64,000 nt of DNA from Candidatus Aminicenantales bacterium (GTDB lineage: Bacteria; Acidobacteriota; Aminicenantia; Aminicenantales; UBA4085): assembly GCA_049515535.1 (NCBI GenBank), contig JBEKTZ010000001.1:330599-394598 (forward strand), written 5' to 3'. Position 1 is the stretch's first letter. Each line of letters opens with the position of its first letter. Below, one piece after another: positions 30,001 through 42,000 of this stretch. Made by a program: the position numbers.

Positions 30001-33000
30001 TGCTCCCGGATGACATCCGGATCCTCGATATCCGGAGAGTCCCGTTGGATTTCCACGCCCGGAGGAACGCCAAGGGAAAGGTCTATCAATACCGGATTTG
30101 GCAGGCGCCCGAGATCACTCCGTTTATCTGCCGTTATGTCCTCCATTGGCCTTACCCGCTCGACATCAGGCTCATGCGCGACGCGGCGCGGCTTTTTCAA
30201 AGGACGGGCGATTATTCCGGATTTTCCTCCAACCGGCTTCTTCCGCCGGTCCGCAGCGTCGTGCGGTCAGAACTTCGTAAAAAAGGCGACGAACTCGTCT
30301 ATACCATCGAAGCCGGGGGGTTTCTGCGCTACATGGTCCGGACGATCGTGGGCACGATCCTTGAAGTCGGCCGGGGCAAAGTCCCCCTGGATAAGATCGA
30401 ACGCATCTTCCATGAAAAAGAGCGAACGCTGTCGAGTCCGACCGCACCGGCCAAGGGCCTTTGTCTTCTCAAGGTCATTTATTGAGGAGAAGGATTGAAC
30501 TCCATTTATTGAACGAAGCGCGGGTGACGATGAAGGTCGAGCTCCTCCGCCCGCAACGGATGAGCCCGCGCCGACATTTCTTTACGACATCAAGTTCAAT
30601 CCGAAGACAAGCGCGTCCTCATCGGGATTGAAATAATAGTTTTTTCTGACGCCGATCAGGTCGAACCCGAGTTTCGCGTAGAGGGTCTGGGCGGGCTTGT
30701 TGGACATCCGGACTTCGAGAGAGACGAACGTCACCTTCTCGCCCCGGCCGCGCTCGATGGCGTCCCGGAGTATCGACTCGCCGACCCCCAGCCGCCTGAA
30801 ATCGGGATGGACCGCGATGTTGTTGATCATGATCTCATCCTTGATCTTCCAGTAGATGATGTATCCGACGATCTTTTTCTCCGTCGCGTGCACGGCCACG
30901 AGAGGAAAGGAGATGTCGTCGTTTTGGATCTCGCCCCGGAATGTCGTTTCCCGCCAGGGGTTGGGAAACGACGATTGTTCGATGGCCAGCACCTCGGGGA
31001 GGTCTCCGTTCTCCATCCTCCGGAGAGCGAAGGGAAGGGAGGCGGCCGGTCGATGATTAATGCTTTTCCTCCGCCTGGGATTTTCGATAATAGAGCGGCT
31101 CGAGTTCGGTCGAGGAAATTCCCTTTTTGGCGGCCAGGATATCATGGCCGAGGAGGCCGACTTCATAGGCGATGAATGGCGACCGATCCGAAAATCGGGC
31201 TTTGTCTTTCAAGCGGTCCACAATTTTCTCCCGGTAAAGACCGCTCCCGTTCCCGATCATGAGAATGGCGCGCCGCGCCGGAAGAAGGGACAGAAAACGG
31301 TCGGGAGGATAGGCTCCCTGGGGGATCGCCTCCTTGAGTCTTTTCCCTCGAATTTCAAAAAGGGCCGCGTAGATTTCTCCCCTTTTCGCGTCGAGCATCG
31401 GGGCCACAAGAGAGACCGGCGCATCGCGGAGCTTCCAGGCCAGGGCCGCGAGCGAAGAGACGGGAGCGACCGGCTTTCCCGAGGCGAAGGCAAAGGATTT
31501 CACGGTGCTCAAACCGATGCGGATTCCGGTGAACGAGCCGGGACCCGGCGTGACGGCGAATCCGTCGATGTCCTGAATGCCCAGATGGAGAGATCCGAGA
31601 AGCAGATCGATCGAAGAGAGAAGCCGGGCCGAATGCGTAGACGGCGCTTCGACGGCGAATTCCGCGAGGAGGCGGCGGTCTTCGAGGACGGCCGCGGAGC
31701 CGCCCGGCGTCGTCGTGTCGACGGCGAGAATGCGCATGCTAGGATTTCACCGATCGGCCGAATTTGAACAGATTGCCGGCCTTGAAAATATTGTATTGGA
31801 CGGAACTCATCGCTTCGAGCTCCAAAGGAATCCCCTGGTTAAGGTTCTCCCCTTTCCCCGTCCGGACGTCGAGCCGGATCACGTCGCCGCTCGCGATTTT
31901 TCCCGAGGCGACCAGCGGTTCGAGCCCGCGGATCTTGAGAATCGGAAATCCGGAATTCACGGCGTTCCGGAAATAGATCGCCGAAAAGGACGGCGCGAGA
32001 ACGGCGCCGATCTTGAGAGCGACGAAACAATCGACAGCCTGCTGCCGAGACGAGCCGGCCCCGAAATTGCGGCCGGCGATCACGATGTCTCCCGCTTCGC
32101 ACCGCTTCGGAAAATCCTGCCAGCCTTCCAGATTCCCGAGGGCGAAGGGGCCCATCTGGGCGACATCGGTAATGTGAAGATGAGCGTTGTGATAGATCTG
32201 GTCGGTATCGATGTCCTCGAGGATCTTTCCATCCGTGTTGAGGAGGAGCCAAATCCGGCCCTGTTTGATGTCGCTGTCCATGTCACAAATCCTCCGGACT
32301 GATGATTTCACCGGCGATACAGGAGGCGGCCACGACGGCCGGGCCCGCCAGGAAGGTATGGCCTTTCCCCTGCTTCCCGGGAAAATTCCGGTTGCCCGTG
32401 CTGATCTGCGTTTCGCCCTTTCCGGTGAGGCCGACATGGCCTTCGGCGCATCCGCCGCAGCCGGGGTTGACGATGATCGCCCCGCTGCGGAAGAGCGTTT
32501 CGAGAATGCCGCGTCCGAGCATCTCGTCATAGACGTTCCGCGTGGCCGGGACGATTTTTAACATCACGCCCTTTTTGACGACGCGACCTTTAAGGACCTC
32601 CGCGGCCCGGGCAAAATCCTCGGTCCGGCCATTGGTGCACGAGCCGATGAAACCCGATTCGATCTTCGTGCCGCGCACTTCGCTCAAGGCTTTGACGGTA
32701 TTCGGAGAAGGCGGAACGGCGACCTGGGGCGGGAGGCCGGAAACGTCGATCTCGACGACGGCGGCATAGGCGGCCCGGCCGTCGGCGACGGCGGACGGGG
32801 CCCCGGGCTTTGCCCGGGGGTCCACTTCCGCCGCGAAGGCTCGTCCCTTGACGAAAGGCGCGAATTCCAGACCCGCGGACACTTTCATCTCGGCGGACAG
32901 GGCGGTCTCGAATTCCGGAATGAATCCAATGATCCCGGCCATTTCCGTGATCATACTGCACAACGTGATCCGGCCGGCCAGCGAGAGGCGGCGTACGGCC

Positions 33001-39000: not shown

Positions 39001-42000
39001 CAAGAAATCTCATGTCTTTTTCTCCCGGTACTCTTTCAGCCCCGGGATCGGCAGATCGATGGCGATGGCCTTTCGCTCGTGGAACCGGCAGAAGATCTCG
39101 CAGGCCAGACATTCCGTGCATTTTCCTTTTCTGGCTTGCTCCGGCGGGATGGCCAAGACCGGATGATCCCCTTCCAATTTCAGGATTTTCTGGGCGCAGG
39201 ATTCGACGCACCCTTTGGATCGGCAGCCCGGGCATTCTTTATGGTCGATGAACAGGCGCCCGGTCAAAGTCTCGAAAGAATACGCTCCACCGGCGGGCCG
39301 GAACGCCTCCATCGGAATGACCTCGTGCCGGATGTTGCCGTTCGCCAGGATCATCTCTTTGAGCCTGGTCGCGCATTTCTCCGGGGCATCGTCCCGGCCA
39401 TAGCCTTCGACCCCGGCCGGCAGGCTCTGGCCATAATCGGCGAGGATGCGGATGGCCTCTTCTTCGCAGTTTCCGCCAAGGCGGATGACGGCGGGGATGC
39501 GCAAATCCTCTTCGAGAAAAGCTTTGATCAGGCCGCGCGCCGAATGGTATTGCTCCTGGCTGGCGACGCCCGACCCGGAAGCGAAGTAGCCGCGGATGCC
39601 GGGTTGGCTCAGAATGATCTTGGCCGCGCGGTAGACCTTGCTGGCCGGCGGATTGCCGCTCGTGTCGCAGTAATTGGCCAGTTTGAACCCCTGATCAAGG
39701 ACCGCGTCCATGGACATCATCGAACCGCCCCCTCCGGCTCCGTGAAAGCCGATATAAGGGTCGCCGGCGGGTATTTTGTCGATCATCTGAAAGAAGTAAA
39801 ACGTGCCGCGGTAATCCTTTTCCTCGACTTTATAAGCGATCTTCTCGAGCTCGGTCGGCGGCCGGTCGAACTCGCGGGCCACTTCGATCCCGAGCTCCGG
39901 GTGCCGGAAAACCGCGTAATCGTCGATGACCAGATGACAATCCGCTGCATAGACGGCGCCGTCCTCCGTGAGGACGACCGGGTTGATCTCCGCCGACCGG
40001 GCGTCATTCGACCTGGCCGCGCCGTAGAACTTGGCCAGCAGATCGGCAAGCTGTGTCAAAACGCCGCCCGACAGGCCTGTTTTCCGGACGAGATTTCGCG
40101 CTTCGAATTCGCGCAGTCCGGTGGCGACGTCGATCGGCATTCGGACGATCTTCTCGGGATAGTTTCGGGCGATCTCTTCGACGCCGGTTCCGCCGGCCGC
40201 GCTGAAAACGAGAAGGGGACATTTTCGGGCGTCGTCCATGACCAAGCCGGCGAAATATTCGGCCGTGATGGCCAGCTTCTCCTCGACCAACAGCCGGTCA
40301 ACGATGTAGTTCCCGACCTTCATACCGAGCATTCGGGAGGCCTTTTCCTCGGCGTCTTGAGGCGTGTCGGCGAATTGGATGCCGCCTAGGCCGGCGCGGC
40401 CCGTCAGCCAGATCTGAATCTTCAGGACGACCGCCTTTCCGATTTTTTCGGCGACGCCGCGGGCCTCGGCCGCCGAGAAGACGACATTCCCATGAGGGAC
40501 GCGAACTCCGCCCTCCTTGAGAAGTCTCTTGCCTTGATATTCGTAAAGCCTCGCCACGCCAAGGATCCTTTCGTCCGACTGATGGATAAGTATACTGAAA
40601 TCCGGCCCAGGTGAAAAGGGGCCGGCGGCGTCTCTATCAGATCTTAACGACGACCCCCACCCGCAGGCCGAAGCCGCTGAAATCGACCTTGGCTTCCCGA
40701 GTGAATGCGAAGCCCGGCCCGCTCGGCGATATCCCCCTCAGTTGGGTCGCATGAGGACGAGGTTTTTCAGGCCGTTCTTGATGAATTCCTCGTAATACCG
40801 GTCGACGATCTCTGTCTCCATCCGTGAACGCGTCTCCGGATCCATGTGATCGACCTGGATTTCGCCGTATTGGGCGACGAGGTCCCGGTCGGCGAGGCGA
40901 TATTCCAGTTCTTCCCAGAACATGTCGTTTTTATAATCGTCAAGGCCGAGCAGCCATTCGTCTTCGGTCTCGTTCGTCGGATACCAGCCGTCATTCTCCT
41001 CATCGTAGAAGACGAGCTTGCCGAGGCCGAAGTCCCTGGCTTTGCCGTAAATGGAGTTCTCGAGCGCGTCCGTTTCTTCGTCGGCGTCCTCGGCGTGGAA
41101 ACCGTTGACGACCCAGTTCCCGAGATAAACCAAGCGCATCAGGACCTCGTACTGTCTTTTCGTCAGTTTGATCTCCATGACGTCGTCTCCTTCCGGCCCC
41201 GGGAGTTCTGTCATGAATAAGATACGTTTTCCCGGACTAGGACGCAAGCCCGATCATCGTTTCCGACCTCCGTCGCCACACGGATGGACGCGCCGCTGAG
41301 ATCGCGAAGTCCAAACCTGAAATAACGCCGAAAGGGAACGGCGCGCCTTTGCCCTGAACGGCATTCAAGAAAAAAAAGGGAGGGGGAACATTCCTTCCCT
41401 CGTGTCTTCGAGGAAACGGAGGGTCCGGTTCCGAGTTCAAGAAAACCCGGAGTTCGTATCCCTAGCCTCTATTCAAACCAGATCTTGACGATCTCGTGTT
41501 TGTCCTGGACTTCGATGAGCGACATCGGACCGGCCTTTTTTAGCTCGGCAAAGAGGGCAGCGACGTCGATATCGCAATCCTGCCGGTCGAACCGGAAATG
41601 CTTGTCGTCGACGCATTTGAAGACGATGTCTAAGATGGCGATGGGCAGCGAGAGTCGGACTTTCTCCTCCTTGGTTCTTGCGTCCGTCACCAGCAGCTTG
41701 AACCATTTGACCTGTTTGCCGGGCTCATAGGCGGGGTTTTCCATGACGGCCTTTTTAATGGCCCGGAGATCGTCCTTCCGTTCCGCCCGCGCCAGGGGCG
41801 CGGCGCAAACGATCAGCAAGAGCGCGACGGTTGTCCAAACAGAGATTTTTTTCATGTGTTTCTCCTGGAAATTCATTCGATCCAGATCTTGATCCGCTTG
41901 CCTTCGGAGTTGATCTCGAGGATATTGCCTTTGGCGGACTGAAGATCCCGGATGATCTTGTTCATGTCGTATCCTTTGGCCCGCATCGTCGCCTTGTCCT

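Follow-up and report, generated by a model that had tools for sequence, protein, structure and literature searches.

Gene content of the locus

The window analysed here is a stretch of 64,000 nucleotides from the genome of a Candidatus Aminicenantales bacterium (G000). Nine co-oriented minus-strand open reading frames fill positions 31739–40557 with gaps of −4 to 171 bp between them, confirming the nine-gene operon described in an earlier survey of this genome. Its features are as follows.

39010–40557, minus strand: CoA ligase beta subunit, 515 aa; ATP-grasp, putative CCS/ACL-type acid-binding domain and ferredoxin-like tail
39010–39261, minus strand: ferredoxin-like tail, residues about 433–515 of the beta subunit; C-x2-C-x4-C-x3-C and C-x2-C-x2-C-x3-C
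38035–38928, minus strand: CoA ligase alpha subunit, 297 aa; SHAGA motif (His255); sucCoAalpha 294 against a cut-off of 353
37242–38021, minus strand: citryl-CoA-lyase (CCL)-family protein, 259 aa; PRK06224.1-3 and -6 above cut-off; 6hxp 2e-60
36712–37245, minus strand: stand-alone HD protein, 177 aa; PF01966
35387–36640, minus strand: first LeuC/HacA-type large subunit, 417 aa; canonical aconitase site; hacA_fam 540 against a cut-off of 386
34899–35390, minus strand: first LeuD/HacB-type small subunit, 163 aa; loop TDVIYAGKYTY
33609–34727, minus strand: beta-decarboxylating dehydrogenase, 371–372 aa; S-P-I-V-x-L-R where IDH has S-x-N-V
32283–33596, minus strand: second, divergent LeuC, 437 aa; Asp-His changed to Asp-Leu/Cys and NRNFxGR to NRNFxGK
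31739–32281, minus strand: second LeuD, 180 aa, starting at 32281, not 32530; GSSR base motif, loop TDQI[FY]HN

The same 34 related loci were recovered as in the survey, with identical counts for the HD protein (23), dehydrogenase (15) and second LeuC (14) and close ones for CCL (28 including partial matches, versus 26) and the first LeuC (22 plus one fused Lys4-type protein, versus 23). The beta subunit, an ortholog of which occurs in 48 of the 61 genomes of the order, is a proposed homocitryl-CoA synthetase large subunit. It matches SCS (3ufx, 8.7e-71) before CCS (6hxq, 3e-37) and ACL (6hxj, 1e-24), the ranking already reported, and the survey's label “SCS-type” holds for the ATP-grasp half. 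The C-terminal domain passes the Pfam cut-off for Citrate_bind (PF16114; 32.1 versus 26.8) with no match to Ligase_CoA; CCS 6hxq is the best match of residues 225–400 (3e-15 versus 1.5e-13 for SCS), and 3ufx is marginally ahead of it over residues 270–390 (1.3e-12 versus 2.7e-12). The two ligase subunits miss the NCBIfam SucC/SucD cut-offs (246 versus 370 and 292 versus 336), and a separate SCS pair lies at C3:95.6–97.7 kb. His255 of the alpha subunit is, by its role in SCS, presumably the phospho-histidine; with an SCS-like alpha/beta ligase of this kind and a separate CCL, the operon shares the gene layout of CCS.

The acid-binding domain carries an invariant loop G328-S-G-x-A-x-Q-E-Q and R359-x-G-G. 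Citrate-binding residues of ACLY are 343–348 and Arg379 (PMC11365397, PMC13670275). These are not kept in the ligase (loop S-G-V-A-S-Q-E, strand R-L/I-G-G), with the register set by the 6hxq alignment and motif position rather than a residue-level ACLY alignment. Loss of the Arg379 equivalent and gain of an invariant Glu335 would make an odd pocket for a tricarboxylate, which counts against homocitrate. The cysteine motifs noted earlier in the tail comprise eight residues (442, 445, 450, 454, 480, 483, 486 and 490) predicted to hold two [4Fe-4S] clusters; the tail matches ferredoxin I (1dwl) at 6e-4. Of 38 homologues, 32 have both motifs; one other is truncated, and the five from Phycisphaerae are all degenerate. 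Locus L028 has a separate 98-aa Fer4 gene, and the tail is probably accessory.

The CCL homologue again matched CCL of Hydrogenobacter thermophilus, as the survey had found, and satisfies the PRK06224 family cut-off. It has the citrate-synthase-type His/Asp/Arg catalytic set, the roles of which we assume from citrate synthase; at least 93% of 38 homologues retain each of H65, H100, H148, R156, D197, R222 and R241. The arginines kept are those expected for a dicarboxylic oxo-acid, which would favour homocitrate, and the protein is a proposed (S)-homocitryl-CoA lyase.

The first LeuCD is a proposed homoaconitate hydratase, LeuC remaining under the HacA_Meth cut-off (473 versus 550). At locus L034 its slot holds a fused fungal-type homoaconitase (TIGR00139, 724 versus a cut-off of 530), and similar fused proteins replace the first LeuC in nine further operons. 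The LeuD loop reads G[KR]YTY across homologues, resembling TDGIYAGKHTY of fused homoaconitase-like proteins in four of seven loci compared. For the dehydrogenase, matched at E ≤ 1e-100 in 168 of the 401 genomes of the phylum, the best NCBIfam model is homoisocitrate dehydrogenase AksF2 (356 versus a cut-off of 540), and no HICDH model cut-off is reached. T. thermophilus HICDH is the best match of residues 1–145; IDHs score best over the full length (PDB) and residues 65–142, and the IDH Asn is absent. The enzyme is proposed to be a homoisocitrate dehydrogenase running reductively; the missed HICDH cut-offs and the better IDH scores count against this.

In the second LeuC, the NRNFxGK Lys is found in 35 of 36 sequences, and Leu or Cys stands for His in 31 of 31 at a pair that we take to correspond to Asp100-His101. 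The second LeuCD departs from the aconitase-superfamily catalytic set, keeping the three cluster cysteines and GSSR with the presumed His acid gone. A role of His101 in aconitase catalysis is described (PMC8184944). The G000 copy has an in-frame repeat insertion, and in G028 and G033 LeuC and LeuD are fused. Orthologs of the second LeuC occur in 49 of the 61 genomes and never together with a PrpD-like gene in the dehydrogenase loci examined.

Interchangeable lyase modules and the HD protein

The same dehydrogenase occurs with other lyases: an ACL-type fusion in place of ligase/CCL in G028, CitD/E and CitF in G033 and 12 of 60 further loci, an HMG-CoA-lyase-like protein with a family III CoA-transferase in G019 and 19 of the 60, and a PrpB-like lyase in three. 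CitD/E/F, HMG-CoA lyase with CoA-transferase III and PrpB-like proteins are families known for cleavage, and by analogy the swap favours this direction. In G043 the PrpB-like lyase adjoins genes read as glutamate mutase and methylaspartase, a context that points to citramalate in that genome. D. thermobenzoicus has ligase and CCL and no dehydrogenase orthologue (best 42%). Both observations count against the homocitrate route proposed below.

The HD protein, present in 52 of the 61 genomes, accompanies citrate-lyase-type (S) lyases in 20 of 20 genomes versus none of 22 with HMGL/PrpB-type (R) lyases, a split reflecting five changes (at least three) on a quick dehydrogenase tree, so that the 42 genomes are not 42 tests. 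The nine HD-less genomes of the order all lack the second LeuC and carry a PrpB-like orthologue (seven) or an HMGL and CoA-transferase pair (two); six PF13714 matches among the 52 HD-positive genomes show at most 36% identity and are not orthologues. According to PMC6689899, CitE cleaves (3S)-citryl-CoA, and CitE-like and HMG-CoA lyases are stereospecifically opposite; PMC3556520 explains the existence of PrpD by the different elimination geometry that (2S,3S)-methylcitrate demands. HD tracks the S-type lyases, and we infer that HD and the second LeuCD (or a PrpD-like protein) supply (S)-homocitrate from cis-homoaconitate. The nearest fold of the HD protein, YhaM (TM 0.68), says nothing on function.

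Lysine and citrate genes elsewhere in the genomes

In G000 the LysW operon consists of LysW, X, Y, synthase, Z and J. Its synthase is a homocitrate-synthase-like PF00682 gene, and it contains no aconitase-family or dehydrogenase gene for homoaconitase or homoisocitrate dehydrogenase. Nor did the stretches examined in 12 further LysX genomes yield any; contig ends cut three of these short. Other members of these families in G000 are only AcnB and IDH, the latter adjoining MDH. The first LeuCD and dehydrogenase appear to complete the LysW operon in the 13 genomes; these incomplete operons and the fungal-type homoaconitase substitution together point to a C7 substrate.

A saccharopine (LKR/SDH) pair is present in G000, and its LKR matches the catabolic human AASS domain at 4e-75 versus 4e-14 for yeast Lys1. 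Of the order's 61 genomes, 52 have LKR, as do 23 of 60 dehydrogenase-positive versus 0 of 20 dehydrogenase-negative genomes. Its absence from the matches of 9 among 48 ligase genomes, and of the other 37 dehydrogenase-positive ones, counts against the proposed route. In favour of the cleavage direction, the acyl-CoA dehydrogenases of G000 score at most 321 where the glutaryl-CoA dehydrogenase cut-off is 470. KamA matches in G000 and four of four relatives tested mark a competing lysine route, which counts against the one proposed below.

CcsAB and citryl-CoA lyase of H. thermophilus (PDB 6hxq, 6hxp) are an rTCA2 marker (PMC9802188). The operon resembles this citrate-cleaving marker of a CO2-fixing cycle in its split alpha/beta ligase, its short citrate-synthase-fold lyase and the shared segments RPPTE...D[YH]RG, GGGGS and GNPPA.K.Y...KIILS.PGIRG. 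In contrast to H. thermophilus CCS, its ligase has GSGVASQEQ for GGTAN, lacks the Arg of ACLY position 379 and bears a ferredoxin tail, and it is encoded with homoaconitase/HICDH-like genes in genomes with ordinary citrate synthases. As the survey had suggested, it is not an rTCA marker, nor the citrate step of the genome: G000 has two full citrate synthases, AcnB, IDH, MDH and SCS elsewhere.

A proposed reverse aminoadipate branch

Judged by which genes it contains, the families they belong to, their co-occurrence and their altered residues, the operon would, on balance and by a modest degree, be the aminoadipate branch run backwards, from 2-oxoadipate and CO2 to acetyl-CoA and 2-oxoglutarate. 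The survey had suggested 2-oxoacid chain elongation or its reverse; a 2-oxoacid chain-length module is supported, and the evidence favours the reverse. Homocitrate is the probable substrate; given homocitrate, cleavage is the probable direction; given both, an inversion step is rather likely. Using NAD(P)H, the dehydrogenase would add CO2 to 2-oxoadipate and form homoisocitrate, which the first LeuCD would dehydrate to cis-homoaconitate. The HD protein and second LeuCD would jointly form (S)-homocitrate, the enantiomer cleavable by citrate-lyase-type enzymes, with either of the two as isomeriser or hydratase. The ATP-dependent ligase would then yield homocitryl-CoA, split by the CCL homologue into acetyl-CoA and 2-oxoglutarate. 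In LysW-operon genomes, the first LeuCD and dehydrogenase would double in lysine synthesis in the forward direction. Disposal of 2-oxoadipate coming from lysine via saccharopine is the most likely use. All steps of the route are reversible, which counts against cleavage, and a literature search found no homocitrate-splitting lysine breakdown route in print.

The first LeuCD and dehydrogenase fit steps in the initial half of the alpha-aminoadipate pathway, which comprises homocitrate synthase, homoaconitase (Lys4/LysTU/HacAB) and homoisocitrate dehydrogenase. Unlike that pathway, the operon has a cleavage module in the synthase's place and adds both the HD protein and a remodelled second LeuCD; the majority of carriers lack LysX. 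As in the methylcitrate cycle (PrpD; AcnD with PrpF), a citrate-synthase-type stereocentre would need an extra enzyme before an aconitase-family hydratase, and a PrpD-family protein fills the second LeuCD slot in many operons, albeit far below PrpD cut-offs (112 versus 950); in contrast, HD is the only extra conserved gene seen (PrpF lying outside the search), and the proposed flux is toward cleavage. A known route likewise carboxylates, isomerises and cleaves to acetyl-CoA: 2-oxoglutarate is reductively carboxylated to citrate, on which ATP-citrate lyase then acts. The operon's substrate would have one more carbon and be chiral, which accounts for the predicted inversion step and for there being two classes of lyase.

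Forward operation is unlikely. CCL and ligase would condense acetyl-CoA and 2-oxoglutarate with recovery of ATP, replacing homocitrate synthase as the survey had suggested, and 2-oxoadipate would enter a fungal-type lysine route (LKR/SDH backwards) or further oxidation. The reactions lie near equilibrium, LKR/SDH also forms the last fungal lysine steps, related operons have fungal-type homoaconitase, and 34 ligase genomes lack a PF00682 match, including single-contig G013, G027 and G041, the last also without LysX over the cut-off or a LysA match. The survey's absence of a synthase stands for these genomes but not for G000 and single-contig G047, with synthase-like PF00682 in the LysW operon. 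Replacement is weakened because all 13 LysX genomes (of 61) keep a PF00682 gene beside the ligase, the other 35 ligase genomes lack LysX, and cleavage systems in known roles take the ligase/CCL slot in relatives; the operon probably does not replace homocitrate synthase. Moreover, LKR resembles AASS, not Lys1, and a motif scan of G000 found only AMP-binding proteins of 567–608 aa and no Lys2-sized reductase.

Somewhat less probable as the substrate is one of the smaller alkylmalates, such as citramalate, ethylmalate or isopropylmalate, with 2-oxobutyrate or a branched 2-oxoacid carboxylated and split to acetyl-CoA and a shorter oxo-acid. The stereochemical logic would be unchanged, and high LEUD_arch and IPMI_arch scores, the missing citrate arginine, the methylaspartate-pathway neighbours in G043 and a serine dehydratase inserted in the operon at L021 are consistent with it. 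However, methylaspartase, glutamate mutase and AtuA are unmatched in G000 at 1e-8, IPMDHs rank low for the dehydrogenase specificity region, G012 and G040, with LeuA-type genes, have their own further PF00180 and LeuC genes (LeuB/LeuCD), and the C7 argument given above weighs against it.

A still slimmer chance attaches to cleavage of ordinary (R)-homocitrate, which differs from the preferred (S)-homocitrate route at the third step only: the second LeuCD (or PrpD-like protein) would serve as homocitrate dehydratase in an isomerisation shared between two enzymes, with HD as a housekeeping hydrolase. Fungal and T. thermophilus homoaconitases do the homoaconitate/homoisocitrate half only, a second enzyme being normal (PMC3556520), and most R-type operons use another variant of LeuC, which might catalyse both halves. 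But CCL, ACL-type enzyme and CitE must each have flipped stereospecificity, the HD pattern is left unexplained, G028 carries HD and the second LeuCD with its ACL-type enzyme even though its LeuC variant is of the R-type, and G029, G037, G043 and G048 have the first LeuCD without the second. Least probable is citrate itself, the operon then being an additional aconitase/IDH/ACL set that would use 2-oxoglutarate reductively or serve the rTCA cycle: three swapped modules (CCS/CCL, ACL, CitDEF) are citrate-cleaving families, the best full-length PDB matches are IDHs and several genomes have one PF00180 gene only, but G000 has its separate citrate enzymes, the IDH Asn and ACL citrate residues are not kept, and citrate, being prochiral, does not explain why HD and a second dehydratase should go with one class of lyase.

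More tentatively, with odds a little short of even, these operons may represent a widespread, undescribed CO2-fixing exit for 2-oxoadipate/lysine carbon in at least four interchangeable builds (CCS/CCL- or ACL-type ATP-dependent, CitDEF-type, HMGL with CoA-transferase, and PrpB-type), with the first ATP-homocitrate lyase, a natural (S)-homocitrate intermediate, and an HD protein that works on the carbon skeleton, as isomerase or hydratase, and not as a phosphohydrolase. If so, many of the genes called “citrate lyase” or “ACL” in uncultured bacteria would be misread.

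The nine-gene operon and its CoA ligase

Nine open reading frames on the minus strand, separated by intergenic gaps of -4 to 171 bp, form a real, conserved operon, ordered as follows from family matches:

40557..31739, minus strand: beta subunit of an SCS-like CoA ligase (Cys-rich tail); ligase alpha subunit; citryl-CoA-lyase homologue (CCL); stand-alone HD protein (HD); LeuC-1; LeuD-1; beta-decarboxylating dehydrogenase (DH); LeuC-2; LeuD-2

The two LeuC/LeuD pairs are termed LeuCD-1 and LeuCD-2. Repeat profile and structure-sequence searches reproduced the family and PDB scores of the operon proteins reported in the survey, together with its gene counts over 34 related loci, which are mostly titled Aminicenantes and include five from Phycisphaerae and one from Desulfofundulus thermobenzoicus. 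When the genes near metagenome and phylum loci were clustered, no conserved transporter or substrate gene emerged, and a promoter scan gave 2 hits versus 3.0 expected, no excess over chance. Elsewhere in the window, GC content is 33-45% at 1-22000 versus 53-63% in the remainder, and several consecutive glycosyltransferase-like ORFs (23.7-28.1 kb) adjoin the low-GC stretch, which is possibly an acquired surface-polysaccharide region.

The description of the beta subunit as SCS-type held for its ATP-grasp half and needed correction for the C-terminal domain, where Citrate_bind scored above cut-off and CCS was the closest family over residues 225-400 (a narrower cut gave a tie). The ligase falls below SCS cut-offs, and a fold search ranked SCS first, then CCS and ACL, giving no clue to substrate. 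A plain SCS paralogue was rejected on the family scores and the canonical SCS encoded separately on contig C3 of the window's own genome (G000). With beta residues 225-515 as query, 5414 of 8000 scored candidates matched at E<=1e-20, perhaps including other CCS-like clades. Passages of PMC11365397 place residues 343-348 and 379 in the ACLY citrate site, whose residues are named in part of PMC13670275. At those positions the ligase carries S-G-V-A-S-Q-E and R-L-G-G, nearly fixed in 38 rows; CCS has GGTAN at the first, and the operon's ligase failed the CCS citrate-site test. The survey's view that the operon is not an rTCA marker was upheld: a citrate or rTCA role was rejected as the main reading, given the changed citrate-site residues and the separate TCA set of G000 (AcnB, IDH and MDH grouped on contig C4, canonical SCS, two full-length citrate synthases). 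DH also has S-P-I-V versus S-x-N-V in IDHs. Overall, the operon would work like CCS plus CCL coupled to the isomerase and dehydrogenase reactions of the aminoadipate pathway.

Of 38 homologues, 32 have both cysteine motifs of the ferredoxin tail. The tail is kept in all five Phycisphaerae proteins, with most of its cysteines lost, and in D. thermobenzoicus the ferredoxin has a gene of its own, lying between those for beta and alpha. A catalytic role for the predicted clusters is therefore improbable; our guess is that the tail acts as a gate for redox state or oxygen, or has a structural function. The D. thermobenzoicus locus (L028:2472-19140) places CCL, ligase beta, separate ferredoxin and alpha within a GntR/TRAP operon that also holds a TRAP transporter, PrpB-like, PrpD-like, AcnX and fumarase-like genes and two flavoprotein genes. 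No DH orthologue was found at this locus, so substrates probably differ within the ligase family, and D. thermobenzoicus is a cultured host in which another organic acid is probably used.

Lyase modules around the dehydrogenase

Among the 61 genomes of the order Aminicenantales, the ligase is present in 48, HD in 52 and LeuC-2 in 49. One genome (G028) combines HD and a fused LeuCD-2 with an ACL-type pair whose alpha subunit is fused to CCL, and another (G033) holds DH, HD, fused LeuCD-2, CitD/E and CitF. All nine HD-less genomes of the order retain DH. Seven of these carry PrpB-like genes of a single orthologue group, with identities of 81-96% when compared with the copy of G053 (among the seven); the other two, G019 and G042, carry an HMG-CoA-lyase-like (HMGL) pair, which in G019 consists of an HMG-CoA-lyase-family protein and a family III CoA-transferase beside DH and a different LeuCD variant, with neither HD nor LeuCD-2. 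PF13714 gave six matches in the 52 HD-positive genomes, all distant.

Across the 401 sampled genomes of the phylum Acidobacteriota, DH was found in 168 at E<=1e-100, and 60 of the 168 neighbourhoods, picked to span families outside the order, were fetched. Twenty contain a CCL or CitE/CitF gene (citrate-lyase, or S, type); 15 of these hold HD together with LeuCD-2 (6) or a PrpD-like gene (9), the latter in the order HD-PrpD-fused homoaconitase-DH-CitDE-CitF. A further 22 are of R type, with HMGL plus CoA-transferase (19) or a PrpB-like lyase (3), and no HD, LeuCD-2 or PrpD-like gene was found in these 22 neighbourhoods. The remaining 18 have no lyase nearby. Genome-wide, HD occurs in 20/20 S-type, 0/22 R-type and 30/60 of all sampled DH genomes. 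Among 80 metagenome loci, a PrpD-like gene follows DH in 12, with LeuC-2 in 0/12. The lyase label changes five times (at least three) on a quick DH tree, so the independent evidence amounts to a handful of switches, with HD following each. Most R-type loci share one LeuC variant beside DH and HMGL; for loci that combine this variant with a PrpB-like lyase, the DmdAB/Dml nicotinate pathway was considered as a possible alternative.

Several DH or LeuCD loci have further neighbours. Six metagenome loci (L127:1868-3199 and five others) have, directly 3' of the DH orthologue, a gene for a protein of 443 aa that matches neither Pfam nor NCBIfam, and two other DH loci (L115, L116) have archaeal-type neighbours. 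An ornithine-cyclodeaminase-family gene, which could be a pipecolate-route enzyme, is immediately upstream of DH at L021:15444-18171 (with a serine dehydratase), L079, L092 and L096. Additional LeuCD pairs are two in tandem at L073:8216-11824 (G013) and one beside a fumarate-reductase-like flavoprotein at L074:7396-10950 (G027).

Proposed substrate series and stereochemistry

The survey had placed the operon in closed genomes with no LeuA, CimA or homocitrate synthase; this does not hold generally, as G000 has a PF00682 gene. Its LysW operon encodes LysW, LysX, LysY, a homocitrate-synthase-like protein, LysZ and LysJ; it lacks genes for homoaconitase and HICDH, and the stretch read shows no LysK-like gene. 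LysX exceeds its cut-off in 13/61 genomes of the order, all 13 with a PF00682 match (adjoining LysX in 12); no LeuCD or DH homologue was found in their fetched lysine loci, three of which are cut by contig ends. The G000 candidates for homoaconitase and HICDH, besides TCA enzymes, lie in the nine-gene operon only, and two genomes with LeuA-type genes (G012, G040) have their own additional PF00180 and LeuC genes. At one locus (L034) the LeuCD-1 slot is filled by a fused protein that passes the fungal homoaconitase cut-off (724 vs 530). A fused homoaconitase-type protein of this kind is found in all five Phycisphaerae genomes, together with HD and orthologues of DH and the PrpD-like protein. T. 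thermophilus HICDH is the best match to DH residues 1-145, while full-length and narrower searches favour IDH. From these observations, the substrates are read as the series homoisocitrate, homoaconitate and homocitrate. Glutamate-derived citramalate was rejected as a source in G000, where methylaspartase and glutamate mutase were not found.

The LysW operons hold another gene, in 10/10 assembled far enough, for a hydrolase that may release lysine from LysW:

L045:13235-13900 (G000 C3:45234-45899): EgtC-like N-terminal-cysteine hydrolase (TIGR03442, 1e-9, below cut-off); also at L047, L048, L049, L237, L241, L242, L245, L246 and L247

Homocitrate is chiral, and its (R) form is used by synthases and homoaconitases; some HMGL-family and PrpB-family lyases act on (R)-alkylmalates, and CCL and ACL take the (3S) configuration, for which "pro-S" wording appears in part of PMC11237513. 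Passages of PMC6689899 state that CitE cleaves (3S)-citryl-CoA and that CitE-like enzymes are opposite to HMG-CoA lyases in the C3 configuration they accept. In CIP order, (S)-homocitrate corresponds to (3S)-citryl-CoA. From these specificities we infer an extra stereochemical step from cis-homoaconitate for S-type lyases and none for R-type lyases, matching the distribution of HD. Passages of PMC3556520 indicate that PrpD is required in the methylcitrate cycle for a similar kind of reason. The same source also backs a simpler explanation, in which ordinary (R)-homocitrate is formed and two enzymes are needed in any case.

If S-type lyases require the extra step, LeuCD-2 and HD are candidates. 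LeuC-2 keeps the cluster cysteines and LeuD-2 the serine motif; the Asp-His pair of LeuC-2 is Asp-Leu/Cys in 31/31, and a conserved Arg is Lys in 35/36. Aconitase His101 protonates the leaving hydroxyl (PMC8184944, in part). These changes are compatible with an altered reaction of LeuCD-2, for instance cis/trans isomerisation or hydration from the opposite face. The HD protein has a confidently predicted fold (pLDDT 95) and conserves R123, K102 and several His/Asp residues; a fold search found no close likeness to a characterised enzyme, only generic HD folds, and an Atlas search gave unnamed HD clusters. Within LeuC-2, an in-frame repeat of ~68 bp (window 32786-32853) adds ~21 residues relative to orthologues; it has 129 blastn matches in the genome, self included, and part of it recurs near window 44350-44400.

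Direction and implications

The cleavage direction is favoured because the alternative modules belong to families known for cleavage and because LysW lysine makers keep a synthase as well. With moderate confidence, the operon most likely represents the ATP-dependent form of a previously undescribed route that would cleave homocitrate and so convert 2-oxoadipate into acetyl-CoA and 2-oxoglutarate. Such disposal of 2-oxoadipate would consume CO2 and NAD(P)H while yielding 2-oxoglutarate, for which G000 has a 2-oxoacid:ferredoxin oxidoreductase and SCS as outlets. We take the net reaction to be close to equilibrium at standard state, so that direction is not set by thermodynamics. G000 also encodes a saccharopine pair, in which one gene hits the lysine-oxoglutarate reductase domain of human AASS (4e-75 vs 4e-14 for yeast Lys1) and the other PF03435; the first is present in 52/61 genomes of the order, and in 23/60 DH-positive versus 0/20 DH-negative genomes, a comparison in which related genomes do not count as independent. 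Three acyl-CoA dehydrogenases of G000 all stayed below the glutaryl-CoA dehydrogenase cut-off, and the usual 2-oxoadipate exit was thus not found in G000.

A leucine/HMG cluster on contig C12 (L333:10895-16001 and beyond; G000 C12:34.9-45.3 kb) encodes acyl-CoA dehydrogenase, biotin carboxylase, hydratase and carboxyltransferase, with adjoining genes read as DUF35, thiolase, HMG-CoA synthase and a CoA-transferase-like pair. CCL may be its missing HMG-CoA lyase, for which no match was found in G000; the HMG-CoA synthase-like and CoA-transferase-like neighbours give an alternative outlet.

In the literature searched, which left most subscription journals and supplements outside its scope, neither the term "homocitryl-CoA" nor a description of such a route was found. 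CCS and CCL serve as rTCA markers in genome surveys (passages of PMC9802188); a large heterotroph-borne family of look-alikes acting on a different substrate would lead to too many calls of autotrophy where these rest on CCS/CCL and ACL. Four orphan annotations (the HD family, LeuCD-2, PrpD-like proteins and the ferredoxin-tailed ligase) become open to cheap direct testing, and a chain-shortening module would be of use for C6 acid engineering. If real, the route would be a common outlet for 2-oxoadipate in sediment and soil bacteria, judging by the spread of DH through the sampled phylum.
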